DNA from: Okamejei kenojei
Lineage: Eukaryota
Assembly (NCBI GenBank): GCA_035221665.1
Contig: CM069150.1
Coordinates: 5,952,001-6,016,000, forward strand
DNA: 64,000 nt
Reading direction: 5' to 3'
Positions 2,641 to 62,543 of the stretch are shown one piece after another (the first letter of the stretch is position 1; the number at the start of each line of letters is the position of its first letter). The notes below the pieces were generated by a model. The model worked only from the letters and a program-made list of their open reading frames with translations, was not told where the DNA came from and ran no database searches. Both the position numbers and the translations under genes were made by a program.

Positions 2641-3559
2641 TGTTGGACAAGCATTGACTTGTGGAGGACACAAGGATCAAGGCCGAGCCCAATATTCTAA
2701 GATAGACAGAAAATGCTGGAGTAACTCAGCGGGGGAAAAAAAGGCAGCATCTCTGGAGAGAAGGATGCGTGATGCTTGGGTCGAGGACCCTTCTCCAGAC
2801 TTTGTGGTCTAGACGAACTGGTACACGATGCTTGATGTTGGAACTATAGTCTCACAATCTGCATCTTTACTTCTGTTTCTGTACTTATGTTTACCTTGAG
2901 ATTGGCTTGATTGAATTTATGTATAGTATTATTCAATTTGATTAGAAAGCATGCAGAACATTCAATTATTTCCAGAGAATACAAAAATTCTTGTTTCTAA
3001 TTACACATAATATTGAACCACCCCCTGGGGTATTCATCCAAGTGCTCAATGCCTCCCACAATGATAAAAAAAAATACACGCAGGGTTTGACGAGGGCAAC
3101 AAACAATAAGGCTGAGATAACAGATCTGTTTTCTTTCAAGACAGTGATGTGCAGCGTACAGTGGCTATTCAGAACTCGACTGTGGCTCGACTGAGTATTC
3201 TTGTACGCAGCTCAACAACCCTTTATGGGTGGAGGGAACTGCAGATGCTGATTTATACTGATGGCTATTTACACTAAGCCCATTTTTTCATTAAATAGAC
3301 ACAAATGCTGGAGTAACTCTGTGGGACAGGCAGCATCTCGGGATGGAAGGAATGGTTGACATCCTTCAGATGCACAGTCTGTCTCTGATGAAGGGTTTCG
3401 ATGGCATAAATTTCCACATTTACTTCTCTACAGGAGATGATGCCTGTCGAGCTGAGTTAAGGGGCCTGTCCCACTACGTGTCTTGGCACGCAAATTACTC
3501 AACCTCGTGGTCGCGTTGTGAGGTGTAAGGCATCGCCTGGCCGCGCGGGTAGCTGGGCG

Positions 3560-7587: not shown

Positions 7588-7609
7588 GAGCGGGGCCAAG
7601 AAAATTGAA

Positions 7610-7790
7610 GATAGACACAAAATGCTGGAGTAACTCAGCGGGACCGGCAGCATCTCTGGAGAGAAGCAATGGGTGACGTTGCGGGTCAAGACCCTTCTTT
7701 CAGACTGAAGAGGGGTCTCGATCTGAAACATCATCCATTCCTTCTCTCCAGCGATGCTGCCGGTCCCACTGAGTTACTCGGCATTTTGCG
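7610..7790. mobile_element. Penelope-derived fold-back module
   Basis: gacacaaaatgctggagtaactcagcgg...ccttcttt cagac followed by its inverted counterpart ctgaagaggggtctcga...tgagttactc. Confidence 0.7.
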
Positions 7791-7937
7791 TCCATTTTCA
7801 AATGACGTCACACGCTCCAGACGGCTGTGCGGTCGAATGAAGTCACACACGACCTTCGCGGGACCGTCGCGGTTCAACGCGACCACGAGGTCGCGTAATT
7901 TGCATGCCAAGGACATGTAAGTGGGACAGGCCCTTTA

Positions 7938-8138
7938 CTGGAGTAACTCAGCGGGACAGGCAGCATCTCTGGATGGAAGGAATGGGTGACATTCCTTCAG
8001 ACTCATACTGTCTGAAGAAGGGTCTCGACCAAAAACTCACCAATTTCCTCTCTCCAGAGATGCTGCCTGTTGCGCTGAGTTACTCCACCCGTTTTTTTGT
8101 CTGTCCTGAGTTTAAACCAGCATCTGCAGTTTCTTCCT
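7938..8138. mobile_element. Penelope-derived fold-back module
   Basis: Inverted arms around tctgaagaagggtctcgacc; ends with ...aaaccagcatctgcagtttcttcct. Confidence 0.7.
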
Positions 8139-8154
8139 AACCCCCAATTATTCA

Positions 8155-13224: not shown

Positions 13225-14777
13225 TCATATATGATAAACCATCATTTATGATAATCAAATATACATGGGTGACTATTACATTATCAATCATATCAACAAT
13301 CACAAGATGATGATGTCACCTCCCAGAATCTCATCAAGCTTCCCGAGTTTTCGTGGGCGTAGCTTCACAATTTCCGTCTGATAAGTCATCACCTCCCGAG
13401 TTTTCATGGGCACGAATCCCATCCATCTGCGTTGTCAGTCCCTCTGTACTCCATCCATGGTTGAACCTATAATTCCTAAAAAACATGGGATGAAGCAAGT
13501 TACCATTCATGCACTAATGCTCTCCCATACATTCATCAACTGTACTATCACTATTCTATTCTATATAATCTTTCCCCTACTTGGATCAACATTAATCAGC
13601 CCTCTCCGTATTCACATGATGTTCTTCAATGTATATCTGATGATGGTTTCTCATATAAATTTCAACTGGGTTCTGTCCAGATTTCCCTACAGGCGTGACT
13701 CTTATTCAAAGCAAACCATGAGGAATGTTTCAATTCAACCAAATTCAGTCTCAGCCTTCAATTTAATATTTTAAATCTTGGGGTCCATCTCACCTTCTTC
13801 ATTCCACAGCTTGTGGTCGATAACACAATTCAATTCAATTGCTGTGGAATTCCCAGCTGTTCAAATGTAATCAATTAATTTCCATATTTTGTAGATTAAT
13901 ATAAAGCCAATTAAGAATGCCGAATCTAGAGACAATTTCTTTACATCTTGATAATAGAAGCTGTTTACTATCAAGGGTTAGACAAATTTAGATCCACCGG
14001 TCAAATACATCGACTCTGACACAAGTACCCATAGTACTTCTTATCACATAAGACTTCTCCTTCAGTAACTCTTTCTAAACTGTTAACTTTGTTTTCTCGA
14101 AGGGTAGTTCTGCTATCCGCATTTCCTCTTTCCTACTTTCAATGCCAACTCTCATGTTCCCTCCATATTCCTCCATTTTACCAGATCTTCCCAAGTTCCA
14201 TCCTTTGACTGATGTTCTTTGAATAATCCTTCCCATCCTTGGCTGCCTGTCTGGGGATGAGACAATAAAAAAATACCAAGTTAGTAATCAGATTTTAAAT
14301 ACTCGTAAGTCATGTCACTCCATGTCAGTTCATAATCTCAAGCTTTAAAGTTCTTCCAATTCATCAATATACATTTAGAGATCGAATTCAGAATTTTGCC
14401 AATTTATTTCAAATGACTAGAATTTAGGCACAAAGTAGGTGTCCCCGAAGAGGAGTTGGCATTTCCAAATTTGATTTGTTCTAATTGGTGCTTGCCCCAA
14501 TAATCTTCAGAGGCAGTTTGTATTTCTTTAGAAAGTGGCGGATGTTGTTCTTTTCTTTTCCCTTCACTGGTGTCAACATATGGCATGTTAAAGTTGGACA
14601 CTGGGGAAAGGTGTCTTCTTCTTGTTTCTCGATGTTAATTCCAAAGGATTAGGAATACCGAGGAGCAGCCTTCTTTGTTTTAAAGAAGGAACTGCAGATG
14701 CTGGAGAATCGAGGGTACACAAAAAGCTGGAGAAACTCAGCGGGTGCAGCAGCATCTAAGGAGCGAAGGAGATAGGC

Positions 14778-14805
14778 GACGTTTCGGGTCGAGACCCTTC
14801 TTCAG
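14778..14805 (-). ncRNA. Minimal hammerhead ribozyme motif
   Basis: The minus strand reads CTGAAGA-A-GGGT-CTCG-ACCC-GAAAC-GTC. Confidence 0.65.
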
Positions 14806-14864
14806 ACCGGGACAGGACAGTACCACTTCTTCTTAGGTGTTGGTCTGTTGTCTCTGGGGAGCTA

Positions 14865-14892
14865 CTGAAGAAGGGTCTCGACCCGAAACGTC
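14865..14892 (+). ncRNA. Minimal hammerhead ribozyme motif
   Basis: CTGAAGA-A-GGGT-CTCG-ACCC-GAAAC-GTC: CUGANGA core, 4-bp stem II, GAAA, palindromic ACGT and a GUC cleavage triplet. Confidence 0.65.
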
Positions 14893-15549
14893 GCCTATCT
14901 CCTTCGCTCCTTAGATGCTGCTGCACCCGCTGAGTTTCTCCAGCTTTTTGTGTACCCAGCCTTCTTTGTTTGTTGGCCTTCCCCAGATGGAATGTATTGT
15001 AGGGACAGGACAGTACCACTTCTTCTTAGGTGTTGGTCCGTTGTCTCTGGGGAGCTACTTGGATGGAGATAATGGCTACAAATCCTACCTGAGCTGTGCC
15101 TTCTGCCCGTTCTTAGGGGTCCATATACTCTGTTACCTCACTCCCCAGATAGTGGCATGTTGCAGGTAACACTGTACTGCAGATACAACAACTCTGTAAC
15201 ACATTATTACAATGGCTCCTATCCCTACCCCTGAACCTCCTGCGCAATAAATTAATTCCTTCTTCTCCTAGTGCCAGCTTTAATTCCCTTCAGTTCTTTC
15301 CCTTCTTGACACCAGCTACTCTGTCTCTATTTTCATAGGTTTCTCAATCCCAATCAGCTTCTTTGTAACTCTCTTCCTGGGATTCGAAAGGGGCGGTGTT
15401 CTTTCTCGTTCTGACCTAGTTTATATTCCGTAATGTCATTAGGATACCTTCAGATTTTATCTTTTAAACTTCGAGGCAAGGGTCATCTTACTTTGTCCAC
15501 ATCCTGGACTAGCTGACAGATCAGAGCTACCGGAATGGATTCGGCTGCC

Positions 15550-15770
15550 AGAGAGTTTAAGAAGGAACTGCAGATACTGGAATATCGAAGGTAGACAAAA
15601 GTGCTAGAGAAACTCAGCGGGTGCAGCAGCCTCTATGGAGCATGGGAAATAGGCAACATTTTGGGCCGAAACCCTTCTTCAGACTGAAGTCTGAAGAAGT
15701 CTGAAGCCTATTTCCTTCGCTCCATGGATGCTGCTGCACCCGCTGAGTTTCTCCAGCACTTTTGTCTACG
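15550..15770. mobile_element. Penelope-derived fold-back element with a 10-bp TSD
   Basis: Inverted arms; ttcggctgcc repeated at 15540-15549 and 15771-15780. Confidence 0.8.
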
Positions 15771-15866
15771 TTCGGCTGCCGGAGTGATGCTTGGTTCCCT
15801 TCCTCCTGATCCTCTGGCCAGTATTCTCTTCCTCTATCTTCAAGGTCCCAAGCATCCCGATAACCT

Positions 15867-17228
15867 CTAGGGGTCCATTGACCTCTGGGACCCCGTGGCC
15901 CTCTTCTCTGACCCCTTTCTCATAGGGCAAGCTCTGCTCCAGTGTCCCGTTTCCCCACAGATGTAACTGTGATCGAGCCTCACCGTTCTATAGCCTCTCC
16001 AATTAAATTGAGGGAAAGTGGGCTCTCTAATAGGCATGTTCCTAAGGTAATCAGGAGGGATCCATTCCTTAAATTCTTCCTCTTCTGTTGATGTCACTTC
16101 CAGTTTTTGAATTCTTAGTACTGGTCTCTGGAAGGATTCAACCGTTGTTGAACTGGGTTGCACTGGATTGTAGCCCGGGGATATTCTGCACCTACTGTGG
16201 TATCTAATTTTAAAGTAGGCAACTTCCTATTAGGGAATTATCTACGGGGAATTTGCTCCATTTCCATATCGGGAATCCGTTCTGATTTTATAATTTTAGT
16301 GATATCAGGATCAGCTACTTCACACCCCCTTATTGTCTCACCCTCAGGGGCACTGCTCCCCCTTCTAAAGACATTTCAATGTTTGAGGAATGATTCCTCT
16401 ACTTATTTTAATTAATTTCGGCACCCACTTCTGAGGAACCTTCTTTCTAATTCCCAGATCCTTCACATTATCCTCTACTGGTGAAACAATCATCGGAGCC
16501 AGAGAGTCCGCTCCCGATTTCCCTGCTATAGATTTAAATTCAGTGGGTGGAGTCGAAGATGCCACTGACTCCACCCGAGCACCCTGTTCGCATGCTGTGC
16601 AAGGTGCTTCAGGACTAGGAACATGAGAGGGCTCACAGGAATGCTGTGACTCTGTTCCAAAAAAGTCTGCCCATTCCCTTACATATTGGGCTTCTCTCCC
16701 CTCGAGATCCACGCTAACCGCTGCGCTTTTACTAAACTTGATGAGTTTAATTTTAGTTGGCACCTCTCCTTTAAGAGCCATTGTAGTTATTTCCCATTTA
16801 AAAGTCGGTGCTCTTTCCTGCTCCTGCTGCTGACTTTCAATGTCTCTCTCTCTTTGTTCAGAAATGTATAGGGAAGGACCAGCTCTCTCTTCCTCCAGCC
16901 TTATCCCTAACTTTGAGGCTGCCAGCCTTAGAGCAGAAAGCAGAACAACTTCTTTATTCACCTTCCTTTCCGTAAAAAACACCCTCCATAATTTAATGAG
17001 TTTGTTCCTTTCTTCACTGTTCCCATATCACCTAATAATTGTCTCTACGTAGGTTATTCCTATTACAGACTTCAGCCCACCCATCGGCCAAAGTTCACCT
17101 CCTAATTCTTTATTTAATTTCCCCAAAAATGTCCTTAATCTTTCTGCCTTCTGAGGAATTTCATCGCAGATTATTTTCAATGGACTTCTGGGGTGGTTTG
17201 TTAGGTCCTTCTCTAGACTATTTCCCAT
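15867..17228 (-). pseudogene. gag: Retroviral gag remnant
   Basis: Starts MGNS (myristoylation-type N-terminus) with a matrix-like ..ELWPMGG segment. Broken into ORFs 17028-17228, 16365-16982 and 15867-16163. Contains a CX2CX4HX4C knuckle, SYICGETGHWSRAC, whose first Cys codon is AGT instead of TGT. Confidence 0.75.
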
Positions 17229-22716: not shown

Positions 22717-23310
22717 TCATCTGCGTAAAGAGACAATATTATTCCCGTGAACAATACTAAAAATATTAGGGGATTCCCTAATAGTGGTGGCTAAAGGTTC
22801 CAAAGCAATATCAAATAGTAAAGGACTTAAGGGACAGCCCTGTCTAGTACCTCGAAAGAGCCTGAAAAACGGGGATCTCTGATTATTAGTAAATACAGAA
22901 GCCTGAGGTATATGATATATCAACTTGATCCAAGAAATACATTTTGGACCAATCTTAAATTTTTCAAGTGTATTGAATAAATAATCCCATACTACTCTAT
23001 CAAACGCTTTCTCGGCATCGAGTGAGATGACACATTCTGGGGTCTTATTAGACGCTGTATATACAATATTCATTAATCTCCTAACGTTAAAGTCTGAGTA
23101 ACAATTTTTAATAAAACTGGTCTGATCTTCAGAGATAATTTGCGGTAAAATCTTTTCCAATCTCAAAGCTAATATTTTGGAAAGACTTTTGAAATCTACA
23201 TTTAACATTAATATAGGTCTATATGATGACACTCCAGTAGGGTCTTTATCTTTTTTAAGATTTAAAGAAATAGAAGCTTCATAAAAGGATTGTGGTAATC
23301 TATTCCAAGC
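22717..23310 (-). mobile_element. L1 LINE RT fragment
   Basis: SYRPILMLNVDFK..SKILALRLEKILPQIISEDQTSFI..ISLDAEKAFDRVVWDYL..RGTRQGCPLSPLLFDIALEPLA. Confidence 0.95.
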
Positions 23311-23574
23311 CTCATACATTATCATCCAAATCATTGATCGAGTTGAGAAACGGCAATTATCCGAGCACCAATCCTTACAGCATACCACCTGTCTGAAATG
23401 GCAGAGAAGATGAGGGGCTGATCAGTTTGCTCTTAGACACATATACTGTAGATATTATAAACACATTTTCCAGGGGATTAAATCTTTAACATGAGGGCAG
23501 TCTACGTAGCTAAATAATTTGCAATGTTGTGGTAGTCATCTTAAATTGAGATGACTACCATTTTAGTTTGTTTT

Positions 23575-25989: not shown

Positions 25990-26520
25990 ATCCAAGACTG
26001 CAAGATTCCTTCGGGACAGTGTTTTGGGCCCAATCATCTCCAGTTGCTTTCTTAATGATCATCCTTCCATCATATTGAGGTCAACAGTGGGAATATTTGC
26101 TGACAAACACATAACATTCAATTCTACATGCAGCAACCCACCCTGCGCTTGCATACAGTAAGATCTAGGCCACAGCCTGATGCTGACTGATAAGTAGCAA
26201 AGACCATTTGCACCACAGATAGACACAAAAATCTGGAGTAACTCAATGGGTCAGACAGCATTTCTGGAGAAAAGGAATAGGTAACGTTTCTGGTCGAGGC
26301 CCTTCTTCAGACCTGAAACATCATCTATTCTTTTCTCCAGAGTTGCTGCCTGTCCCGCTGAGTTACTCCAGCTTTTTGCATCTATCTTCAATTTAAACCA
26401 GCATCTGCAGTTCCTTCCTGCACCTTATGCACCACAAAGGCACTGGGCAATGATGAATTCCAACAAGAGAGTTTGACTACTTAACCAAGATGTTTAATGG
26501 CACCACCATTGCTAAGTCAA
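25990..26520 (+). mobile_element. Old CR1/L2 RT fragment interrupted by a Penelope fold-back (26218-26420)
   Basis: SVLGPIISSCFLNDHPSII..VGIFAD motif. Confidence 0.6.
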
Positions 26521-29473: not shown

Positions 29474-30115
29474 ATAGACACAAAAAGCTGGAGTATCTTA
29501 GCGGGACAGGCAGCATCTCTGGAGAGAAGAAATGGGTGATGTCTTGGGTTGAGACCCTTCTTCAGACTGAAAGTCACGGGAAAGGGAAACAAAAGATACA
29601 GAATAAACAATGATATAGAGAGATATGGAACAATGAATGAGAGCTATGCAAAAAAGTGATGATGATAAAGGTAAAAGGCCATTGTTAGCTGTTTGTGGGG
29701 TGAGAACGAGAAGCTGGAGCAATTTTGGTGGGGGAGGGATGGAGAGAGAGGGAATACAGGGGTTACTTGAAGTTAGAGAAATCAATATTCACACCACTGG
29801 ACTGTAAGCTGCCCAAGCGAAATATGAGATGCTGTTCCTCCAATTTGCATTTAGCCTTACTCTGACAATGGAGGAGGCCTAGGGCAGAAAGGTCAGTGTG
29901 GGAATGGGAAGGAGAGTTAAAGTGTTTAGCAACTGGGGAATCAGGTAGGTCCAGGCGGAACTGAGCGAAGGTGTTCAGCGAAACGATCGCCCAGTCTACC
30001 TTTGGTCTCGCCGATATATAAGAGTCCACATCTTGATCAACGGATACAGTAGATGAGGTTGGAGGAGGTGCAACTGAACCTTTGCCTAATTTCAAAGGAC
30101 AGTCGGGGTCCCTGG
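29474..30115 (-). mobile_element. Penelope-like element 3' part (GIY-YIG endonuclease, terminal module)
   Basis: ..PVAKHFNSPSHSHTDLSALGLLHCQSKAKCKLEEQHLIFRLGSLQSSGVNIDFSNFK*, preceded in another frame by GLLYIGETK..LGDRFAEHLRSV. Confidence 0.9.
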
Positions 30116-30325: not shown

Positions 30326-31623
30326 ATAAATACAGACACCAAAGTAAATCTTACTCAAGGTATAATCTAAAACAGAATATATGGTTATGGTTATTACTAG
30401 GTTGTGGATTAGTGGGACCTTGGTTACATTTCTAACATTATAACCAACTCTGTCTGGGCTTTGAGCAGTTCATTGTTCATTTCCTTCCACAGATGCTGCC
30501 TGACTTTGAATGCAGGGGATAAATTAGATTCTTTCTTTTTGGATGATGACCCTTTGTGTGCCAGTTTGGTAGAGTTGTTGCAGGCCAGTGTTCAGTAATC
30601 TATGCTGCACTCAACTGGTCAGACAACATCTGTGGAAGGAAATAGACATACAATGTTCCATGTGTTCAACTTTAGATGAGACCTTATATTAACAGTCTGC
30701 TTGAAGTTTAAGTGAAACACAAAAAGATATCGTCTGAGAGTAACCCAGTACACCCATCTCAAACTCCCCCAGCAGAAGGTGTGGACGGCAGGCACAAAAT
30801 GCTGGAGTAACTCAGCGGGTGAGGCAGCATCTATGGAGAGAAGGGATTAGCAATGTTTCGGGTTGAGACCCTTCTTCAGACTGATGTCAGGGGAGGGGGC
30901 GGAACAAGGAAAGAATGTAGACGGAGACAGTAAGACTAGTGGGAGAACTGGGAAGGGGGATGGGATGGAGAGAGAAACCAAGGGCTATTTGCTGAACCAG
31001 ACTCCGCCATTGGTACAAACCATAGGTCTTTAGACAACAGTGAACTTATCTCACATATTTGAATGAAAAAGTGGACATTGTAAAGGAACATATGATATCC
31101 CAAGCCCCTTTAGTTCACCAGCCTTTCTCCTCTAGTATAGTTTGAGTTCTTGAGAAGAATTCAATGATTTACCATGGACTGCGGGATCTGCATTATCTAG
31201 AGATGAAAGCGACTGCAGATGCAGGAATCTTGAGGGAAACACAAACTACTGGAGGAACTTGGTAGGTAAAGCAGCAAATGTGAAAGGATCTGAAGAAGTG
31301 TCCCAACCTGAAACATTGTATGTCTATTTCCTTCCACAGATGTTGCCTCATCTGTTGGGTTCTGCCAGCAGGTTTTTGTTTGCTTCCGAATAACCAAAGT
31401 CCACTGATTTCTCTTCTTGTAACAATAATTTAACTTCTGCAATTTCACAATCAAAATATCTATACCATTCCTATAACTCTCATCTTGTCCTCTTCCGGTT
31501 TGCGTTTTTGAATTTGCACAAAGATGGTACTCTATATCGCTCAATTTTCTTTGCCACCTTACTCACCGTTCTCCGCTGCTCCAAGCGCACCAAGTTTTCT
31601 TTTGATCGGTGGAATATTACAAA

Positions 31624-31925
31624 AGTCCACAAGCCGTGAGTGAGTGAACTGTGAGTCCCCAAGCCATGAATGGGTAAACTACTGTGAGTCCACAAGCCGT
31701 GACTGAGTGAACTGTGAGTCCACAAGCCGTGACTGAGTGAGTGAACTGACTGAGTAACTGTGAGTCCACAAGCCGTGACTGAGTGAACTGTGAGTCCAGA
31801 AGCCGTGAGTGAGTGAACTGTGAGTCCAGAAGCCGTGAGTGAGTGAACTGTGAGTCCGGAAGCCGTGAGTATGCGAACTGTGAGTCCAGAAGCCGCGAGT
31901 GAGTGCACTGTGAGTCCAGAAGCCA
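31624..31925. repeat. 30-bp minisatellite, block A
   Basis: Unit GAGTGAACTGTGAGTCCA(C/G)AAGCCGTGA(C/G)T, about 9 copies. Confidence 0.95.
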
Positions 31926-32455
31926 CTCAGAGCATGGAGCCTGCCCGATTGCTGCAAACTCGAGAAGTGAGGAGTGAGAGTGGGGGTATTGAGGGAGCTG
32001 GGTGCTGACAGGGTCGTGCGCTGGTGGGGCTCAACACCCCCGGATACACTCCCCCAACCCCCTCCCCTCGCACACACCCAACCGCCCCCAGCCACAGGCC
32101 ACGACAGCGCTCTCCCCCTACCAGCCCCTGCCTGAAGCCGTCCCTCTCCGCCGGCTACAGAATGCACCCACTGGCCCACAATGTCCATACTAGCCCTCTG
32201 GAAACCAGTCCCTTTGGCCCACAGCCATACATGCCCTTCTGAAAGATCTCCCCTCACTGGCCACCGCCTGAAGCCGTCCCTCTCCCCGGCTGCAGAATGC
32301 AACAAGAGATGCAACAAGAAAGAATGGATTGAATAAATCTCCTCTATAACATTTAAATTGTTGTTCTTCTCCCCATATCCCCTGACTCCGCTGTTTTTAA
32401 GAGCCTTATCTGCCTCTATCTTGAAAGCATCCAGAGAACCTGCCTCCACTGCCCA

Positions 32456-33322
32456 CTGTGAGTCAGTCAGCCCGGAGGCCTGGAAGCCTGGAAGCCGTGA
32501 GAGTTGAGTCCACAAGCCGTGACTGAACTGTGAGTCCACAAGCCATGACTGAGTGAACTGTGAGTCTGTGAGTGAGTCCACAAGCCCCATGTGACTGAGT
32601 GAACTGTGAGTCACAAGTGAGTGACTGTGAGCCGTGACTGTGAGTCCACAAGCGTGACGTGAATTGAGTGCACTGTGAGTCCACAAGCTGTGACTGAACT
32701 GTGAGTCCTCAAGCCATGACTGAGCTATGAGTCCACAAGCCATCACTGAGTGAATTGTGAGTCCGTGCACAAGCCGTGTCCACAAGCCATGAGTGAACTG
32801 TGAGTCCAGAAGCCATGACTGAGTGAACTGTGAGTCCATAAACCGTGACTGAGTGAAGCGTGAGTCCACAAGCCGTAAGTTAGTGAACTGTGAGTCCACA
32901 AGCCCTAAGTCAGTGAACTGTGGGTCAACAAGCCCTGAGTGAGTGAACTGCGAGTCCTGAAGCTTTGAATCAGTGAACTGTAAGTCCAGATGCCGTGAGT
33001 GAGTGAACTGTGAGTCAAGATGTCGAGAGTCTGTGAACTGTAAGTCCAGATGCCGTGAGTGAGTGAACTGTGAGTCCAGAAACCATGCGTCAGTGAACTG
33101 TGAGTCCAGAAGCCATGAGTCAGTGAACTGTGAGTCCAGAAGCCATGACTGAGTGAAGTGTGAGTCCACAAACTGTGACTGAGTGAAGTGTGAGTCCACA
33201 AGCCGTAAGTTAGTGAACTGTGAGTCCACGAGCCTTGAGTCAGTGAAGCGTGAGTCCACAAGCCCTGAGTGAGTGAACTGCGAGCCCACAAGCCGTGAGT
33301 GAGTGAACTGTGAGTCCAGAAG
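32456..33322. repeat. 30-bp minisatellite, block B
   Basis: Same unit, roughly 28 partly degenerate copies. Confidence 0.95.
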
Positions 33323-34579
33323 CTGCCCTGAGTGTGGAGCCTGCCCGATTGCTGCAAACCCGAGATCCTGAGGAGGTGAGGAGTGAGAGTGGGGGGATTG
33401 ACGAGCCAGGCGCTGGCGGGGCCTGGCGCTGACAGGGCCGGGAACACTGGCAGGGCTCAACTCCCCCGCCCACACACCCCCCATCCCCCTCCCCTTGCAC
33501 ACTTCCACCGCCCCCCCAGCAGCAGGCCACGGAATCAGCAGGCCATGGCAGCGGAAGGTCACGGCAGCGCTCCCCCCCCCACCAGCCCCTGCCTGAAGCC
33601 GTGCCCCTCCCCAGCTACATAACGCTCCCGACAGCCCACAATGTCCATACTAGCCTCTGGAAACCAGTCCTTCAGCCCACAACACCCATACTAGGCGTCC
33701 CTCTCCCCCAGCTGCAGGACACTCCACCCTCCTCCACTGGCCCCTGACAGCCCCACCTGAAGCTGTGTCCCTTCCCAGGCTGCAGGACGCTCCCCCCACT
33801 GGCCCCAAACAGCCCCCACCTGAAGCCGACCCCCTTGCCCAGCTGCAGAACGCAACAAGAGATGCAACAAGAAAGAATGGACTGAATAAATCTCCCCTTT
33901 AACGTTTAAATTGTTGTTATAGTTTAAGAGTTATTCACATTTTAAGCTTTAATAAATCCCTTTTCCACTTGCCGTACCCGTCAGCTGCACCTGCAACATA
34001 ATAGTTATGTGTCACAATGAGAACCCAATGGGAGGGAATCACTGCGCCGCCGGAGAGCCGCTAAAATGGATGGGGGGGGGATTGAGGGGGGGATTGAGGG
34101 GGGGGGGGGTTGAGGGGGGGATGGAGTGAGTGAGTGTGTGTGGGAGGGAAGAGCAAGGAACGGAGTGGGGGGTGAGGGGAGAAGGGGGGATCAGTGGCAT
34201 CACAACAGGAACCCGTCAGCTCCGCCTGCGCAGTTGGGGGCTATGCGTGAGTGGTGGAATATTGGAATTGGTGGAGTGAGAATATTGTGTTGGGGGGACC
34301 AGGCCTCCCATGTGAGAATGGGACCCAATGGGTCCAACTTAGTCTAGTTTTAATTAATCCTCCGATCTGAATCACAATGCTAATCTCAGTACCTTTTCCA
34401 ATAAGATATGACTTTTGACAAACTTGCTTTGGCATATCTAATTGTTATTAATCTCATTTTGCTTTGTTTTCATTTCACTGCTGTCAGCGTCTCGAGATTA
34501 GGTTAACAATAACAATATGTTTCTTTGGGATATTTTCACACCTTCTTGGCAGTCTTGAGATTAAGGGTGATTTATAGAT

Positions 34580-36632: not shown

Positions 36633-37673
36633 GGAAGATGGACACAAAAAGTTGGAGTAACTCACTGGGCCAGACTGCATCTCTGGAGAAAAGGAATAGC
36701 TGATGTTTCGGGTCGAGACCCTTCTGAAGAAGTTACTCTTCTGAAGAGGTCTGAATGAGTCATTCCAGCTTTTTGTGTCTATCTTCTCTTTAAACCTGGT
36801 TGCACTCACTCATTCGGCCTCATCGGCCAGGCAACACCATTCACATGCCTGACACCAGACTGCCAACCACCCCATTGAAAATTGCTAAACATTCATGAAT
36901 GTGCTCAAACAAACCTATTTCAAGATGCATCTTCCCCTCTGTGAATCTCTGACCCACGGCCATTCAAACTGGACTAAGAGCATTTGTGATGATATTGGAA
37001 ACCTCACATCGTCTCCTTCAAGAAAACCTCCATCCTCTTGTTGAGTAATGGAGTCATAGAGACATATACACAAAACAGGACCTCTCTTTCACACTGACCA
37101 GGTTTTGTAACTGAGCCTGTCTTTGACCCATATCATTCTAAACCATTCTGATCCATATACCTGTCTAAACATCTTTTGCACTTTGTCTATGTATCTACCT
37201 CAACAGCTTCCTCTGGCAGCTCGTTCCACATTCCTGCCACCTTCTGTGTGAGGAAATGGCCCGTCAGGTCACTTTTAAATCTTATCCCTCTTTTCCTACA
37301 CCTATGCCTTCTGCGCTGTACTCCTTTCCCCAAGGAAAATGACCGTGACCTTTTCTTGATTCTGTGATTCTCTTTATGCTCAACCTTCAGTCTCCTACAT
37401 TACAGGGAAAAATGTTCTAACCAATCTAGCCTCAGCTTTTAACTCAAGCTCGTAAGTCCTGGTAACATCCTGGTGAATCTTTTCTGCACCCTTTCCAGCT
37501 TAATGACTCTCTCTGAATAACAGAGTGACCAGAACTGTACACTTTACCTCAAATGTAGTCTCATCAACATCGTGTGCAGTTTAGTTCAGTTTAGAGATAC
37601 AGTGCAGAAACTGGTCCTTCGGCCCATCGAGTCTGCACCGACCAGCAATCCCTGTACACTAACACTATCCTAT

Positions 37674-42419: not shown

Positions 42420-42685
42420 TGATGATCTGAGGTGTCATCCCCAATGTGAAGAAGAGGTAGGGATCCCTGCAGTCCTTTCATTCTCAGTTTGCATCTTAGT
42501 CTTTGAACGCTTATTTCTTTAGATGGCTGAACAACATGATGGGGCACTGAAAGTGAAAGTGAATTTCAACATCAATATCGGCCTTTGCTGAAAGGCGGCT
42601 CCCAAGATATGAGAAGTGGTGTACATTTTCTAGGGTCTCTCCATGGATCTTTATTGTCGTGCCTGGAGCTGCACTTTGGTCGAGG
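42420..42685 (-). mobile_element. RTE/BovB-like LINE fragment
   Basis: Minus-strand translation KIHGETLENVHHFSYLGSRLSAKADIDVEI. Confidence 0.6.
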
Positions 42686-42900
42686 ACACAAAATGCTGGA
42701 GTAACTCAGCAGACAGGCAGCATCTCTGGATAGAAGGAATGGGTGATGTTTCGGGTCAAGACACTTCTTCAGACTAAGAGGTGTTGACCCGAAACATCAC
42801 CCATTCCTTCTCTCCAGAGATGCCGCCTGTCGCGCTGAGTTACCCGAGCAATTTGTGTCTATCCTCGGTTTAAACCAGCATCTGCTGTTCCTTCCTATAC
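42685..42900. mobile_element. Penelope-derived fold-back element
   Basis: Inverted arms around cttcagactaagaggtgttgacccgaaacatc; flanked by an imperfect tttggt(c/a)gagga(c) duplication. Confidence 0.75.
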
Positions 42901-44220
42901 ATTTGGTAGAGGACCATTGTTTTATGCATGTTTGCTGTAAGAACTGTTATATCATATACTTCTCAAAAAACATGTAGCTGAATATCCAAATGTTTCCAAG
43001 TGTCATCTCTATACGTCACCTTGACAATTGAAGTTTGAGCAACCTTCAATCTGGGTGTAGGTGATGGAGAGGGAACAATTTCTTATTCATGCTACTGATA
43101 ACCTCTGAAGTATTACTGCGTTGAGATAATTGAGAAGAGGTTTGAAAAAGTGACATTGTTCAATCTTCAACCCAAATCTCTAGTTAGTTTAGATTGCAGT
43201 GGTCAGAATCTCTTCTTACAGGTCATTGAGTAGCAGGTAGACACAAAATGCAGGAGTAACTCATCAGGACAAGCAGCATCTCTGCAGAGAAGGAATAGTT
43301 GACGTTTTGGGTCGAGTCCCTTATTCAGACTGGTCATTGAGTAACTGAACTTGTCTGGTCGTGAGGGCTACTATTCAAAGTATTATCTCTATTTGCTGTT
43401 TTAAGATATCTTACAATAACAATTTCTCATTTTTGTCAATACCTTGGTTTGATACTGGGTCACACTTTCACGTCCTTTCAAGGTTGTTGAAAATGAAATC
43501 TGGTGAAATCAAATCAAACCAATGCAAGCTAGAGGTGCAAACAGTGATACAAAATCACGGTTGCAGTCGGAAGAGGGACATTTTCTCTCACTGACAAATT
43601 CAGTAAAGAGTAGAAGAATGAGTCTGAAGAAGGGTCTTGACCCGAAACATCGCCCATTCTTTTTCCCCAGAGATGATGCCTGACCCGCTGAGGTACTCCA
43701 GCATTTTGTGTCTACCAGAAGAATGAAACTGCTGGAGATAATTGGTAGATCAGCCAGCAACAGTGAAGATTGAAATAGAGTTAAGGTTTCAGGTCAAAGA
43801 ACCTTCGTTGGAATTAGAGAAGTTAAAAAGATAATACATTTAAAGTTGGAAGGCCCATGAGTGTAAAGGGCAGAGTATGGTTAAGAAAAGAAATGAGGCT
43901 GAAAATCTGTCAATAACAGTAGAGAAACTCACATTTAAAGATTAAAGAACACCATCTCAGGGATGTCGGTTTAGAAAGTCTCATGTTCTGAGCAGAACCA
44001 ACAGAGATGTAGATAGAGACACTAGAAGATTGGAGTCCTTGCAGAAGGCAGAGTGGCATTGGGAGTTATATTGATTGTGGGTGTCTGTCTGCTTGTAATG
44101 GATATTGGGCCATAGCATGACCCTTGAAATTGAGATAGAGATCTGGAAGGGATGGGAAGAGTCAGCGATGGACCAGAAGAACAGAGTGGAAGTTGGCAGC
44201 TAACTGGCAGGGTGAAAATT

Positions 44221-47020: not shown

Positions 47021-48324
47021 ATTATATTTGGACTGTTGTCATGGGAATGACCACCAATGTTCTCCCTGGAGGCAACTTCATGCCATTATGATTGGACTGT
47101 ATCAGGATCCATGTGGAGAAAGATCCTTCACGATACTCGATCCTTCAGGGCCACCCAATCACGCACCAAAGCAAACTACGTTATTGACAAGATTATCTCC
47201 TAGTGGCTCTGTACGCTTGCCTCTCTTCCCTTAAGTCCCCTGAACACCTTGTCATGAGCTTACCAGATTTCTGAACCTCTTGAACGTCTAAGGCCTCCTG
47301 AATCCCTAACCCAGACATCTACTATGATCACATCCTCACCTCCCAAAACCAATCCAATTAGCCAAGACCACAGATGGAAGCTCTCAACCTCTATCCACGC
47401 ACCCACAACCTTGGACACTTTACAATATACCGCATCATATCCCAGATCCCTGATCCTTCCCAACATTTCTCCCCTCTGCCTAACATCAGGGCCCTAAACC
47501 TTTAGAAAACCTACACCACTCATTCATTGGTGACGTTTCTGGTTGAGATCCTTCTTCAGACTGAGAGACAGGGGAAAGCATCTCCTGAGATGCTGCCTGA
47601 CCCGCTGAGTTATTCCAGCTTTTGTGTCTTTTGTGAAGAGTAGAATATTTCCACGTATAATAAGAATAATTTGGAACACTTTCTACATCAAGTTACCACG
47701 TAATAGAAGGAACAGAGAAATGCCCCATCTGGTCCCACCTGCCCGCGTGTGGCCCATAATATCCGCCTAAACATTTCCAATCCATGTTCCTATCCGAATA
47801 TCTTTTAAATGTTGTTGTGGTGCCTGCCTCACCTACCTCCTCTGGCAGCTCGATCCATATACCCATCATCCTTTGTGCGAAAAATGTGCCCCTCAGATTC
47901 CCATTAAATATTAAATTCAAAAGTCACACACAAGCAAATGTTTAGTCCTATGAATAGCGGATCTTGTTTTCCACCGTTTACTGATTGTTTTTTCTTAGTG
48001 TTCTTATGATGCCGTTCATGACAATACTGTGGAGATACGGCAACCATATTGCGTGATCATTGTGCATTTTTGAACCTATGGACAACATGCATTTATGAGC
48101 ATCTATAAACCAGATTAGCATTATTTTTACTCAGGGGCAGACATGCGCTGAGATGGTGGAATTATGAAGAAAAGTTCAAAGTATAGTCTGATGTCAAGGC
48201 TAGACCTTAAACACTGAACAAAGAGCTGCAAATGCTGAATGGATTTTCTTTTGGTAATAATTTGTTTGTGTGAACCCCAAGCAACCATTGATATCAATCT
48301 TGGCTTAAACCCAGCAGTGTGAAT

Positions 48325-48708: not shown

Positions 48709-50739
48709 AATCTTGGCTGCAAGTTCTCTTTTATTTGGTTCTCAGATGAAATCTCTTGACAAATACTTTCTCATTTCACCTCATTTGCTTTACGCCGTAT
48801 TTCCACATTGCAGAGAATTATTCTGAGCAAAGATTTTTCTCAGTGAATCATTCTGTGTTTGTCTCTTTAAAATGTTGTGGCCAGAGTACGTGGTGGGGGA
48901 GGGAGCAGAGAAAACTGAAAAAAAATTACGATCGCAGGGAATGGAGGGATATGGATCACATGCAAGCTGATGAGATTAGTTTAACTTGGCATCATTTTCA
49001 GCACAGACTAGTGGCCAAAGGATATGTTTCAGTGCTGTGCTGTTCTACGCTTAACTATTGAATAGTATGTGTCAAGGCAAATTATCATGTGTAGAGTGTC
49101 CTTTATTATTTATGCAACTCAGCTATATCTGAGCAGCACATTCCGTCCCCCGTTCTTGCATTATGCAGGTGGTTATTACACAGTTTTGTCCATGTTCAAT
49201 TGCGCTCGGTGCTGGAAATGTTGACCTGTTTGCAAACCGTTTAAGAAAGAAGTGCAATGCTGGAAAAATCAAAGGTAGACAAAATAGCTGGAGAAACTCA
49301 GCGGGTGAGGCAGCATCTATGGAGCGAAGGAATAGGTGGAATTTACAAACCGAATGTCTTTGTCATTGTCTTAGTTCTTTTTGATTCCTCTCTGAAAAAA
49401 GATTTTCTTGCAAAACACTGTTTTGGTGTGAAGTGGTTTTGCATGTTCTCCACGGTGAAATATAAGGGGAACATTTTTATATGGAGATGTATAATTGCAT
49501 AATTAATACTGCAAGAACTATTGACTGCAAGATCAGTTCTGATTTTCTTTTGAAGAACGATCACGATTGTCAGAGGGGAAGGAGAGAGGACGTTCACAAT
49601 TTCATTCATGCAAATAGCAGCTGCAAAATGAACAGAAATGAAAGAATTTCTTGGCTTAGTGAAAGGAGGATGGTAATCTGTCCGCCCTCACTCTCTCTAC
49701 CCCGATCCATCTGTCACATAGGATGAGCTGTTGGAATGAGTCTTGCTATTTGTCCAGACAAACACAAAATGTATTTTCTCAAAACATAATGAATGGTTCT
49801 CAATTTGTCTGTCAAGAAAGCAAGACACTGATATATGCCAGCGCAGATGGAATCTATTTTTATTAATAAAGGCTAGTCTCTAACAAAAACAAAACCCAAA
49901 TGCCACATTTCAATTAGAATGGCATTTGTCATTCCTCCTGCCAGGCTTACAAACGCAGTTTTGAATGCTAACTGCTATTTTCTTCCCCTAAAAGTAAAAA
50001 TGTTGGTCGTCAATATTTGCCAGCCCCCCAGCGCATGCCTACCACCCTCATAGAGATATCACGGACATTAATCCACTCTCAGTTGCACCGGACCTTTAGA
50101 CTGTTGTGTATCTCTCTCATTCTGCTTGACAAGCCATGAGCAGCTTGTGTACAGAGACGGCAGGCTCAAACTGCTGACGAGAAGCATTTTGTGTAGCAGT
50201 CTCGCGAACATCCACACTTCCTCACGCAGAAGCCCACTGAGAGCGCGAGTCAGCACAAAACACAAGCATAAAACCACCTCGTAAAGTATACAGTACATGT
50301 TATTAAAGAGTACCAGATACCCTGGAGTGATCGCAACAGCAAACTAATGAAGGCCGTTGAATGATAGTTATAAAACTGTTCCTGCATTACAGTTTATGAT
50401 GCTCCTTAAATTAATTATCATAAGCTACGGTAATAAAGGCTGGACCATAAGAATTTAGATCCATTGCAAGAACCCGCAGAGGAGTTCAGTCACACTGGTG
50501 ATTCTGCCGTTTCCCAGCGTTCTGCATCATCGCATGATGATGGTGGCTGTGGATAAATATGGTTTCAAGGACACGGTTAGACACCATACCACACTCTCCC
50601 CCACCCCCCTTCCTCCCCAACCTCTCAGCCCCCATGCTATTCCTTGTGTGTTATCAGCTGAACTGACTACAACCACATAAGGTCCAGTCTGTCTGATGTA
50701 CGTAGCCTTTATGGCACAGAGGGAGACCATTCAAAATCC

Positions 50740-51080
50740 AGTCTGAAGAAGGGTCTCGAACCAAAACGTCACCCATTCCTTCTCTCCAGAGATGCTGCCC
50801 GTCCCGCTGAGTTACTCCAGCATTTTGAGCCTATCTTCCATTAAATCAATAGCAAGACACAAAAAGCTGGAGCAACTCAGTGGGTCAGACGACATCTCTG
50901 GAGAAAAGGAATTGGTGATGCTTCGGGTCGAGACCTTTCTTCAGACTGAGGGTCAGGGGAAAAGGAAACAAGAGATATAGACGGCGATGTCGACAGACAG
51001 AGAAAAATTGAATAAAAGATATGCCAAAAAGTAACGATGGTAAAGGAAACTGGTGATTGTGGCGATAGCTGGAGCTGTGG
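50740..51080. mobile_element. Two Penelope terminal modules, tail to tail
   Basis: gtctgaagaagggtctcgaaccaaaacgtc on + (50741-50770) and an inverted copy at 50856-50946 continuing into Penelope 3' sequence. Confidence 0.7.
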
Positions 51081-53269: not shown

Positions 53270-53735
53270 CTCTTTATATATCGGTGAGACCAAGGGTAGG
53301 CTTGGCGATCGTTTCGCCTAACACCTCGGCTCAGTCCGCATTAACCAACCTGATCTCCCTGTGGCTCAACACTTCAACTCCCCCTCCCATTCCGAATCCA
53401 ACATTTCTGTCCTGGGCCTTCTCCATTGCCAGAGTGAGCACCACCGGAAACTGGAGGAGCAGCACCTCATATTCCGCTTGGGCAGTCTGCATCCCAGTGG
53501 CCTGAACATTGACTTCTCCAATTTCCGGTAGCCCTTGCTGTCTCCTCCCCTTCTCAGCTCTCCCTCAGCCCTCTGGCTCTTCCTCTTCCTTTCTTCTTCC
53601 TGACCCTCCACCCTGCATCAGTCTGAAGAAGGGTTTTGGCCCAAAACGTCGCCTATTTCCTTCGCTCCATAGATGCTGAGTTTCTCCAACACTTTTGTCT
53701 ACCTTTGATTTTCCAGCAACTGCAGTTCCTTCTTG
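53270..53735 (+). mobile_element. Penelope-like element 3' part (GIY-YIG) with terminal module
   Basis: LYIGETKGRLGDRFA*HLGSVR..LPVAQHFNSPSHSESNISVLGLLHCQSEHHRKLEEQHLIFRLGSLHPSGLNIDFSNFR*. Confidence 0.9.
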
Positions 53736-53924
53736 AACATCCCATCTCTTGATATGTTACCTATCCATCATTATGGTCCCAGGAGTATTTAATTCTCCCC
53801 GCTGGTCATCTTGCAGGACCGGCATTTTTTCATCCTTTGTGGATCAAACCCAAATACTGTTATTTGTACCACTAATTCACTTATCTTACAGAAGTGCCTC
53901 CCATTCACAGGGCTGTCAACATTG

Positions 53925-58559: not shown

Positions 58560-60039
58560 TGCTTCATATCATAGCGTTGACTTTTCTCTTTTGCCTGCAA
58601 TTTTCTCCTCATGGATTCTAGCTCAACCCGTTTATTTTTCTCCATCGGTCTGAAGAAGGGTCTCGACCTGAAATGTCATCTATACCTTTTCTCCAGAGAT
58701 GCTGTCTGACCCGCTGAGTTACTCCAGCTTTTTGTGTCTATCTTTATTTTAAACGAGCATCTGCAGTTCCTTCCTCCGCTTCTCATTTATTTAAAATCCA
58801 TTTTTAGTCCACATGACCATTCAATAAGACAGGACACTGGATCACGCTAACTTTTAATCGAGCTTGTCCCAATGGAATAGACTTCTTCAAAACTTAATCC
58901 AATTTCTCATGAATCAAAAAGAGTAATTGTTTATTCAATTTAACTAGAAGAGAGAAACCTGTAGCCCCAAGGGTAATTTATGCAAATCTGATGTAAAACA
59001 CTATGTTTTAGCTGCATTCAATTAAATTCACATTAATTCATGGTGCAATTTGTTACGGACAAGTCAATTTTTCTGCTTCCATTAGTAGTGAATAAAGCTA
59101 GTGATAATCCACCTATGAAATTCCATAAATAACATTTGAAGTATCGTGGAGAAAGATCTTATCAAATGATGGCATGCTGGTATACGAGTTCCCTTGTCAG
59201 TAAACACTGAACCAAGGACGAGAGAGCAGGTGGTCTGTACAGTAAAACATCTTGGTGGTTTGAAGCTGGTATGGTCTGATATTAGCGTTGTGAGCACTGA
59301 GGCTGAGAGATAGAAGAATTACTTTTAAACCTAAAATACTCTTTGCCCTAGTCTCACACCACACCTCTACAGGATTCTGCTCGTGACATTAATTGGTTTT
59401 GCACTGAGTGCTGAGCTGTGCTCTTTTTGGCTTCTCACCAACCTGTTCTTGCCCTAACAGGAGTCATTCCAATAGACATATTGAATCATAAAAATGTACA
59501 GTATAGAAATTGACTCCTTCAGCCCACCTCCTCCATACCGACCATGATGCCTGCCTACACTAATTCCATTTGCCTGCAACATGCCCATATCTGTTAGAAC
59601 ATTTTGCTATTCAAGTTCCACTCCAAATGCCTTTTAAACATTGTAATTGTATCTCTCTACCAACTCATCTCATAACTCGTTCTAAATAACCATCACCATC
59701 TTGGTGAAAAACTTGCCCCTCAGATTGTTCCAATCTCAGCTTAAATCCATGCCCTCTAATTCTACACTCTCACGACCTTTGAAAAGGCCTCAGACTAACT
59801 ATGTGTAGGAAGGAACTGCAGATGCTGGTTTAAACCAAAGGTAGACGCAAGATGCTGGAGTAACTCAGTGGGTCCAGAATGGTCCTGACCCAAAATGTCA
59901 CCCATTCCTTTTCTCCAGAGATGCAGCCTGTCCTTCAGACTAACGCTATTATCTATGTCCCTCATAATTTGTACAAATGTTCCATGTAGGTTGGGACACA
60001 AGTACGCGCAAGATGCCTTAATCACTATACACCTCGTAT

Positions 60040-61305: not shown

Positions 61306-61704
61306 GGTTATTAGCTGCTAATTGGCTTCATGTTCATTGGAGTAAATTAGTGTTTACCCCATTCACACTTTACAATTTGCAACTTCCTGCTTCAAATACT
61401 TATGTTGACCTAAAAGCCGTGAAATTAAATCAATCAGCAACTTCTGGTTGAAGTTGTGTCCAGCGGGAATTGAACTGAGTAGCACAATGCGCATTGGGGA
61501 TCTGAGACTCTTGTCCGTAGATTGGAATGCTAATGGCATTTAGACATTTAAATAGATAAGACATACAGTGATGTGGTCCTAATGCAAGCAAATGGGATTT
61601 GTGTCGATGGGAAGAATGGTCAGCATGGGTGTGGTGGGTGGAAGGTCTCTTTTCAGTGCTGCATAACTGTATTCATCTATCACAAAGCGGTCGGTGCGGT
61701 GAGT

Positions 61705-61732
61705 CTGAAGAAGGGTCTCGGCCCGAAACGTC
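61705..61732 (+). ncRNA. Minimal hammerhead ribozyme motif in a Penelope terminal module (61703-61797)
   Basis: CTGAAGA-A-GGGT-CTCG-GCCC-GAAAC-GTC; stem II is retained through a G-U pair. Confidence 0.6.
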
Positions 61733-62543
61733 GCCTATCTCCTTCGCTCCTTAGATGCTGCTGCACCGCTGAGTTTCTCCAGCTTTTTGTGTACCCGTAT
61801 TCATCTATCACAATGCTGTTTGCCTTGTCAACATTAGCAGGAACAATGGCCATCATGGCTGTCACAACCAGAACACATCACAGATCACAAGTTATAGAAG
61901 AATTAGGTCATTCAGCCCATCGAGTCTACTCCACCATTCAATCATAGCTCATCTCTGCCTCCTGATCCCATTTTCCTGCCTTCTCCTCCTAACCCTTGAC
62001 ACCCGTTCTAATCAAGAATTTGTCTATCTCTGCCTTAAAAATATCCACTGATGGCTTCCACAGCCCTCTGTGGCAATAAGTTCCACAAATTAACCACCAT
62101 CTGACTAAAGCCTTTTAAAGCCTGACTCAGCGCCTTCTCCAGGATAATTAGGAAGAAGAAATCCAAAAAAAAAGTCAACTGATAAAGACTATTGAAATTC
62201 CACAAGGAAAACAGGCACAGCTTAGGCCTATGTGGCTTTGCATAGCTACACTGCCCTTTGGCCCAATGCATCCATGTTGACCAAGATCCCTCACCTATTT
62301 GACGGTGCCAAGCCCAGATCCCTCTAAAGCATTCCGATCCACCTACATATCCAAATGTATTTTCAAAATTTGTTATTGTACCTACTTCAACTACTTAATC
62401 TGGCAGCTTATTCCATATACCCATCACCCCACTGTGTCAAAAAGTTGACCCACAACTTCCTATTACATTTTTCCCCTCTCACCTTGAACCTATCCCCTCT
62501 AGTTCCAGATTCCCCTATCCTGGGAAAAAAAAATATATATATA

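Follow-up and report, generated by a model that had tools for sequence, protein, structure and literature searches.

The feature studied here is a fold-back at positions 14666–14971 of the window, that is, of the whole 64-kb stretch of Okamejei kenojei DNA that was analyzed. It consists of two inverted arms enclosed by a 15-bp target-site duplication (TSD) at 14666–14680 and 14957–14971 (both plus strand). The left arm (14681–14807, minus strand) covers positions +2 to about +129 of the element, where +1 is the A in the CAGT that immediately precedes the hammerhead core, and the right arm (14865–14957, plus strand) covers +4 to +96. The arms are unequal, as a tail of about 33 nt is present on the left one only (14681–14712, minus strand), where it extends from site 1 (+96/97) to site 2 (+130). 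Reading of the sequence places a minimal hammerhead motif, which has no match in Rfam, at 14775–14807 (minus strand) of the tailed arm; its helix I would be 3 bp long, with the bases of the junction supplying part of it, and in the untailed arm the 5' strand of the element's helix I is missing. The spacer between the arms (14809–14866, plus strand) is a direct copy, at 57 of 58 positions, of a flanking segment 30 bp past the right TSD (15002–15059, plus strand), with one extra base at its left edge and a 2-bp overlap with the right arm. Since the spacer is a copy of the local flank, the fold-back was assembled at its present site. Both the one-sided tail and the origin of the spacer had been overlooked in the earlier note on this DNA.

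In the predicted fold of the minus strand of 14676–14812, pairing between the 5' core of the hammerhead and the tail end closes the module at its two boundaries, and positions +52 to +59 pair with the tail; this fold is not significant against shuffled sequences and is absent in two older copies.

Fold-backs and single arms in the window and beyond

The module is more frequent in the window than the approximately 20 recurrences counted in the earlier note: a blastn search with one query gave 37 matches, and five real copies used as queries gave 45 arm fragments. The nine fold-backs listed in that note all proved to be pairs of head-to-head arms, and three further pairs were found at 1714–1895, 31212–31379, and 47526–47629. 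Among the 12 head-to-head pairs of the window, one arm is tailed in eight, no tail was seen in four, and none has two tailed arms. The pair at 15552–15772 has its tail on the left arm and an exact 10-bp TSD. Old fold-backs with the tail on the left arm lie at 3228–3459 and at 59803–59933, the latter with a 10-bp repeat at its ends, and those with the tail on the right arm lie at 7938–8142, 42680–42900, and 26212–26423, the last with an exact 9-bp TSD and a recurrent 3-bp microhomology joint. Two other old fold-backs have no visible tail: one at 7600–7798 with a near-perfect palindromic joint and a rearranged one at 36635–36795.

The three TSDs named in the earlier note were also recovered (15 bp at 14666/14957, 10 bp at 15540/15771, and 12 bp at 43221/43332), the last of them around a single untailed arm (43235–43334, minus strand). 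A young single untailed arm that begins at +1 is flanked by a 17-bp TSD (61702–61796, plus strand). The absence of Penelope coding sequence holds for the fold-backs, but several single arms in the window extend upstream into the body of the element, such as a 5'-truncated Penelope-like copy (29478–30114, minus strand) and a tailed module with element body in front of it (53277–53739, plus strand).

The tail-to-tail neighbors at 50738–50949, one of which has upstream body, are likely two separate insertions. The window also contains 30-bp minisatellite arrays (31624–33323), where a 656-codon minus-strand frame with matches to pentapeptide-repeat profiles is most likely a by-product of the repeat, and a reverse transcriptase fragment (22720–23421, minus strand; RVT_1, E = 4e-29), which probably belongs to a LINE.

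Across 264 kb of contig C20, window included, 143 arms were found, and the same search of three Markov-shuffled controls gave 0 matches each. Neighboring arms in this region are head to head in 34 cases vs. tail to tail in 6. The exact 55-nt string of the focal subfamily is present in 25,591 copies in the 2.76-Gb genome; this and the other genome-wide counts are numbers of exact-pattern matches. Extrapolation from the 264 kb would give about 1.5 million arms genome-wide. On the same basis there would be several hundred thousand hairpins that are perfect or nearly so, which could supply large amounts of dsRNA from introns.

The parent element and its hammerhead motif

Longer copies of the module run upstream into a Cys-rich linker and a GIY-YIG domain, and then into a reverse transcriptase (RT). 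The Pfam matches (RVT_1, E = 9e-6; GIY-YIG, E = 2e-4) are both under the curated cut-offs, and the copies examined are frameshifted. Three loci (L173, L187, and L192) are partial pLTR-ORF-pLTR tandems (pLTR, pseudo-LTR) with a unit of ~3.9–4.0 kb (3934 bp in L192), in which the tail comes after the module and an ATG-led frame begins about 30 nt further on; in full-length copies the tail continues into the 5' region and the start of the ORF. Because of this order, the module is identified as the pLTR 3' end of a Penelope-like element (PLE) of ~3.9 kb that bears an endonuclease (EN+) and has RT and GIY-YIG domains, and the Penelope origin suggested in the earlier note is supported by module copies linked to both frames. 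The features of an EN+ PLE are all present: an RT followed by a C-terminal GIY-YIG domain, a pLTR tandem, and an optional tail of 30–40 bp together with an inverted copy and a TSD. The Cys-rich linker before the GIY-YIG domain is a mark of the Neptune clade, to which the element may belong.

Some individual copies are arranged differently. A module starting at +1 lies in front of the near full-length copy L175 (C32:19502896), with ~130 bp of other sequence between it and the tail; at L107:4943, sequence from beyond the tail is joined ahead of pLTR position −18; and at L045 two modules lie head to tail, 88 bp apart.

Units with an inverted 5'-truncated copy, a tail, and a TSD have been described for EN+ PLEs (PMC3846280, Pen2a_Av; PMC8557442; PMC2377424). 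In the portions of these reports that were available, the tail is an optional extension of 30–40 bp, often present at one end only (PMC8557442; PMC3846280), and is ascribed to resolution by the endonuclease (PMC8557442); the origin of the inverted ends and of the one-sided tail is stated there to be unresolved (PMC8557442; PMC3846280; PMC11167929). The two 3' ends of the skate module match these tail boundaries, as well as the start sites determined in vitro for another PLE. The inverted-plus-tail layout is already published, and the fold-backs are end debris of a PLE in this layout, ordinary as a sequence family. They differ from the published units in that the arms are mostly 100–130 bp long and occur at very high copy number. 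A strict one-tail pattern, a single pile-up of 5' ends, and high-copy arms of this length are not mentioned in the available portions of PMC3846280, PMC8557442, and PMC2377424, and no statement of a strict one-tail rule or of nested twin priming for PLEs was found in the literature searched, which covered few subscription journals. Very short new PLE insertions have been reported in Chlamys (PMC9977147, in the part available).

The hammerhead motif has a readable layout of core, extra A, 4-bp helix II, GAAA, ACGT palindrome, and GTC. At the level of the primary sequence, the minimal type I arrangement proposed in the earlier note is borne out, with the core boxes, the extra base, the G-C closing pair, and the palindromic helix III in place. 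The motif resembles the hammerheads of metazoan PLEs in the extra base between 9 and 10.1, the G10.1-C11.1 pair, and the palindromic remnant of helix III, and in the available part of the same study those hammerheads likewise occur mostly as solo copies, with some close pairs on opposite strands (PMC4209133). Helix I (2–3 bp) and helix II (4 bp) are, however, shorter than the 4–5 and 7–8 bp of the Schistosoma motifs (PMC4209133). The Rfam search gave no hammerhead match at the gathering score, nor at E ≤ 10 over 14600–15900; only miRNA-hairpin look-alikes of the palindrome appeared. Likewise, no compensatory change between subfamilies was seen in helix II of 478 motifs; the changes present are a U-A to U-G wobble in one subfamily, CpG decay, and at most six double changes per pair. 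Six of the nine groups listed, the four largest included, have the majority sequence at positions +1 to +31, and the flanking positions differ, which is consistent with constraint in the source elements.

Predicted folds of single-arm RNAs do not form the hammerhead and are no more stable than shuffled sequences (z = −1.2, 0.9, and 0.9). For the focal fold-back, the read-through RNA is predicted to form a perfect 93-bp stem (z = −26) with both motifs inside, in agreement with the long dsRNA hairpin anticipated in the earlier note; the hammerhead is predicted to be a passenger sequestered in this hairpin. The 5' ends were scored for 98 arms among the first 100 places of a pattern lying 3' of the ribozyme. 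They lie at −5 to +10 in 42 of the 98, beyond −300 in 29, and at +26 to +36, where the ends of a cut RNA are expected, in one. The template RNA is evidently uncut. Hammerhead-cut templates were ruled out as the main source by this single end at the cut site.

Tails, templates, and joints of young pairs

The young loci, picked by exact patterns and located mostly within the first 15 Mb of a single contig, comprise 81 inverted pairs in 1.57 Mb of DNA, with 246 single arms alongside. As supposed in the earlier note, a fold-back corresponds to one insertion event with one TSD: a duplication of at least 10 bp surrounds 62 of the 81 pairs and measures 13–17 bp in 51 of these. The 3' ends of 145 young arms are bimodal, at +93–99 or +128–135. 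Exactly one arm is tailed in all 62 TSD-flanked pairs, 57 of which were recovered without the use of any tail pattern. The 19 pairs without a TSD include 10 one-tailed, 6 untailed, and 3 both-tailed ones; on inspection, the nine exceptions are mostly nested, three-armed, or mis-paired, but the both-tailed pair at C1:15082530 looks real and is a counterexample. When pairs of all ages in the 264 kb are considered, 27 of 34 are one-tailed, 7 are untailed, and none is both-tailed. Among the single arms, 78 of 246 are tailed (some were picked by the tail), and therefore an independent choice of ends would give at most half one-tailed pairs.

Both arms of a pair are derived from the same template. 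They match at the polymorphic site +84 in 50 of 51 pairs (expected fraction 0.61, p = 5e-10) and agree in 134 of 136 comparisons over 18 sites vs. 83 expected, although the sites within a pair are not independent; the divergence within pairs is also lower than in permuted pairs in three age classes. These shared variants could also stem from two RNA molecules transcribed at one source locus, from a cDNA that snapped back, or from later conversion between the arms.

The two arms differ in their reach. Of 52 pairs, 34 have the longer reach on the untailed arm and 16 on the tailed one, with 2 ties (p = 0.015); as the tailed arm is the longer in 16 of the 50 decided pairs, once by 1.4 kb, trailing of this arm is a tendency and not a rule. 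When short paired arms are compared, a cut beyond +11 is found in 29 of 42 tailed and 15 of 42 untailed ones (p = 0.004). Among 30 loci with the 3-bp joint, belonging to several subfamilies, the shorter arm carries the tail at 21, the longer arm at 2, and both arms at 1, and no tail was detected at the other 6. In five pairs, an arm that consists of the tail only (start at +94 to +107, that is, about site 1) abuts an inverted untailed arm. Slipped A runs at the tail ends and an extra C at the site-1 ends are common. Without extra bases, microhomology to the target averages 2.0 nt at tail ends (36/62) and 1.6 nt at site-1 ends (49/61), against 0.35 in a one-sided control and a fair expectation of about 0.7; these values are inflated by the choice of ends and are suggestive of a modest enrichment.

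The joints between the arms are mostly unique, with 50 different ones among 52 one-tailed young pairs, none of which was picked by its joint. The arms extend over ~30 to 1825 bp of body within the same architecture. A long match to the flank was found for 1 of 20 spacers of at least 10 bp, namely that of the focal fold-back, and most of the others are duplicated pieces of the element. Recurrence is seen for a perfectly palindromic joint (606 exact copies) and for a joint with a 3-bp overlap (395 exact copies). Each corresponds to a microhomology that the module naturally contains and is found in several subfamilies, with the arms matched within a locus. Relative to the center of the palindrome, the tail was on the left in 14, on the right in 15, and on neither side in 1 of 30 loci inspected by eye, and the two orientations are 13 to 7 in the young pairs.

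The earlier note had regarded the fold-backs as a retrozyme-like, non-autonomous family, in which a whole fold-back is transcribed and re-inserted, and had itself held that unique junctions would speak against such a family. We consider this reading highly improbable. The recurrent joints, and an odd joint common to two fold-backs 55 kb apart (L028, C1:834507; L030, C1:889937) in the same orientation and with different TSDs, do favor it. However, the recurrent joints have the character of natural microhomologies and both orientations of the palindromic one are found, whereas a self-propagating unit should have a common joint and fixed arm lengths, for which L028/L030 is the exception; their joint has only 2 copies in the genome, and rare local re-copying or conversion is possible there. 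The distinct joints, the local flank in the focal spacer, and arms of up to 1.8 kb are likewise at odds with re-insertion of a unit, whose RNA would be predicted to be a perfect 93-bp hairpin, and the cut site accounts for a single 5' end. Retrozymes are tandem units by definition (10.64898/2026.07.22.740005, in the part available). The available portions of 10.64898/2026.07.22.740005 and PMC7229834 describe non-LTR retrozymes that resemble the present copies in being non-coding, hammerhead-bearing, pLTR-related, and dependent on PLE proteins, but these are head-to-tail arrays, whereas the copies here are single or head to head, with ends that ignore the cut site; one tandem pair was found among the 100 places listed. 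The positions of the copy ends also speak against a circular RNA monomer delimited by ribozyme cuts.

A recurring three-armed fold-back at four loci (L032, L075, L078, and L083; C1:1155645, 5157239, about 5520500, and 6079940) has the same TSD and GC-rich flanks in each and is a passenger inside another repeat.

The 5' boundary and the proposed priming of one RNA from two target ends

Position +1 lies in what we take to be an Inr-like context, 29 nt after a motif that we likewise regard as TATA-like from its presumed consensus. The fixed 5' end of the RNA near +1 is probably a start site behind this motif, as judged from the DNA footprints and the motif itself. Just upstream of +3, otherwise diverged pLTRs of many subfamilies have in common a pyrimidine tract, CTGAC, and CAG, which resemble a 3' splice site. 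We therefore also considered, tentatively and with some doubt, that the boundary, instead of being a transcription start, might reflect splicing at a 3' site or a stop of the polymerase before the hammerhead. This alternative is favored by the occurrence of the tract, the branch-like CTGAC, and the CAG directly before +3 in many subfamilies, and by the intron of Drosophila virilis Penelope, which ends at helix I of the hammerhead (PMC4209133, in the part available). On the other hand, no upstream exon common to 249 arms starting at −6 to +8 was found: the clusters were inverted arms or unspliced pLTR, and 119 sequences were unique. The ends lie beyond helix II and not at its 3' foot, and the putative TATA-like and Inr-like motifs also argue against this alternative. 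Of 24 assembled-contig sets listed (many only guessed to be RNA), the four that were compared with the module showed coverage, without usable starts, ends, or a spliced joint. The Drosophila Penelope promoter is described in the available part of PMC2377424 as internal and TATA-less.

Based on these results, we consider it probable that the fold-backs are single insertions assembled in situ, in which both target ends prime on one RNA and the resulting cDNAs join head to head. The endonuclease would make a staggered cut of 13–17 bp, and the two 3' ends would prime cDNA synthesis on the same RNA at positions about 33 nt apart, namely site 1 and, at the tail end, site 2. The site-1 primer would presumably lead and the site-2 primer trail. 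The trailing polymerase may stall at site 1, leaving a tail-only arm as in L1 twin priming, or displace the first cDNA, and both cDNAs would usually run off the fixed RNA 5' end near +1. Their ends could then be joined by microhomology, by snap-back, or by copying from the nearby flank, as in polymerase-theta-type repair. Annealing of two cDNAs that end at +1 would span five bases, the central one mismatched, and could yield the 606-copy palindrome with its center falling either way. The single-arm copies may represent events in which one cDNA was lost, and the hammerhead would matter only in the source elements.

In L1 twin priming, a 5' inversion with a microhomology joint is produced when two target ends prime on one RNA; its arms are free of overlap, and the position of the second primer varies. 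The skate element differs in having a fixed second site and arms that overlap in most cases, so that a palindrome results. The closest biochemical parallel comes from the lizard PLE Poseidon_Ac (PAc), which in vitro cleaves both strands and extends them. Its tail is bounded by a pair of neighboring internal RT start sites, a dimer is predicted, and the RNA used is uncleaved (PMC11167929). The start sites bounding the tail, the extension of both strands, and the uncleaved RNA have their likenesses here. The available part of that paper does not address inverted units and reports no homology to the target and no difference in start site between the two strands, the last of which speaks against the proposed mechanism (PMC11167929). 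In the skate element, known here from its DNA footprints, the ends are coupled and short homology appears modestly enriched; the start of the ORF also differs, lying inside the hammerhead in PAc and about 30 nt after the tail here.

This leads to a more general proposal, to which we give about even chances: that PLEs integrate by nested twin priming, in which one RNP makes a staggered cut of ~15 bp and, on the same RNA, a leading RT starts at site 1, with a second RT trailing from the tail end. If true, it would account together for the inverted pLTR, the one-sided tail, and the solo ends. Initiation on the 5' repeat copy would then give stubs of a strong-stop-like kind, extending as far as the RNA start; the roughly 1.5 million arms would be such stubs. 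The footprints form a natural dataset, and the one-tail rule, the same-template arms, and the lead/trail polarity are testable in the existing in vitro system.

Other ways of obtaining two arms from such a start have to be weighed. Both ends may be primed, and one long cDNA may fold back to provide most of the second arm before joining a short cDNA. This course, which we regard as unlikely, requires no strand displacement and would account for the shared variants, the tail-only arms, and the polarity of the 3-bp joint (21/23), and templated or duplicated pieces at the junctions are common. However, the recurrent joints would require hairpins of 2–3 bp, the palindrome center falling either way (14 to 15; 13 to 7) implies that both cDNAs were at times of full length, and some pairs have 0.7–1.1 kb on both arms and little spacer. 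An asymmetric RT dimer on two RNAs of one source locus, with its subunits fixed to site 1 and site 2, appears still less likely to us. It would yield the one-tail rule, fits the cases in which the tailed arm is much longer, and would give shared variants if one source dominated in the cell, but this supply would have to be near-completely from a single source despite several co-existing variants in the genome, and neither tail-only arms ending at site 1 nor a shorter tailed arm is predicted.

The third course, proposed in PMC3846280 (in the part available), is that self-priming on an antisense template makes head-to-head palindromes. The frequency of palindromic joints (606) and the excess of head-to-head over tail-to-tail neighbors are in its favor, but it leaves unexplained the outer ends at two sense-strand start sites, the short target homology, the slipped A/C runs, and the palindrome center falling either way, and we find it very hard to support. 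Self-priming of the tailed cDNA alone was ruled out, as the central base of the palindrome falls either way.

The extra A and C bases at the outer ends of the arms suggest slippage on the template at priming, as in telomerase-like RTs.
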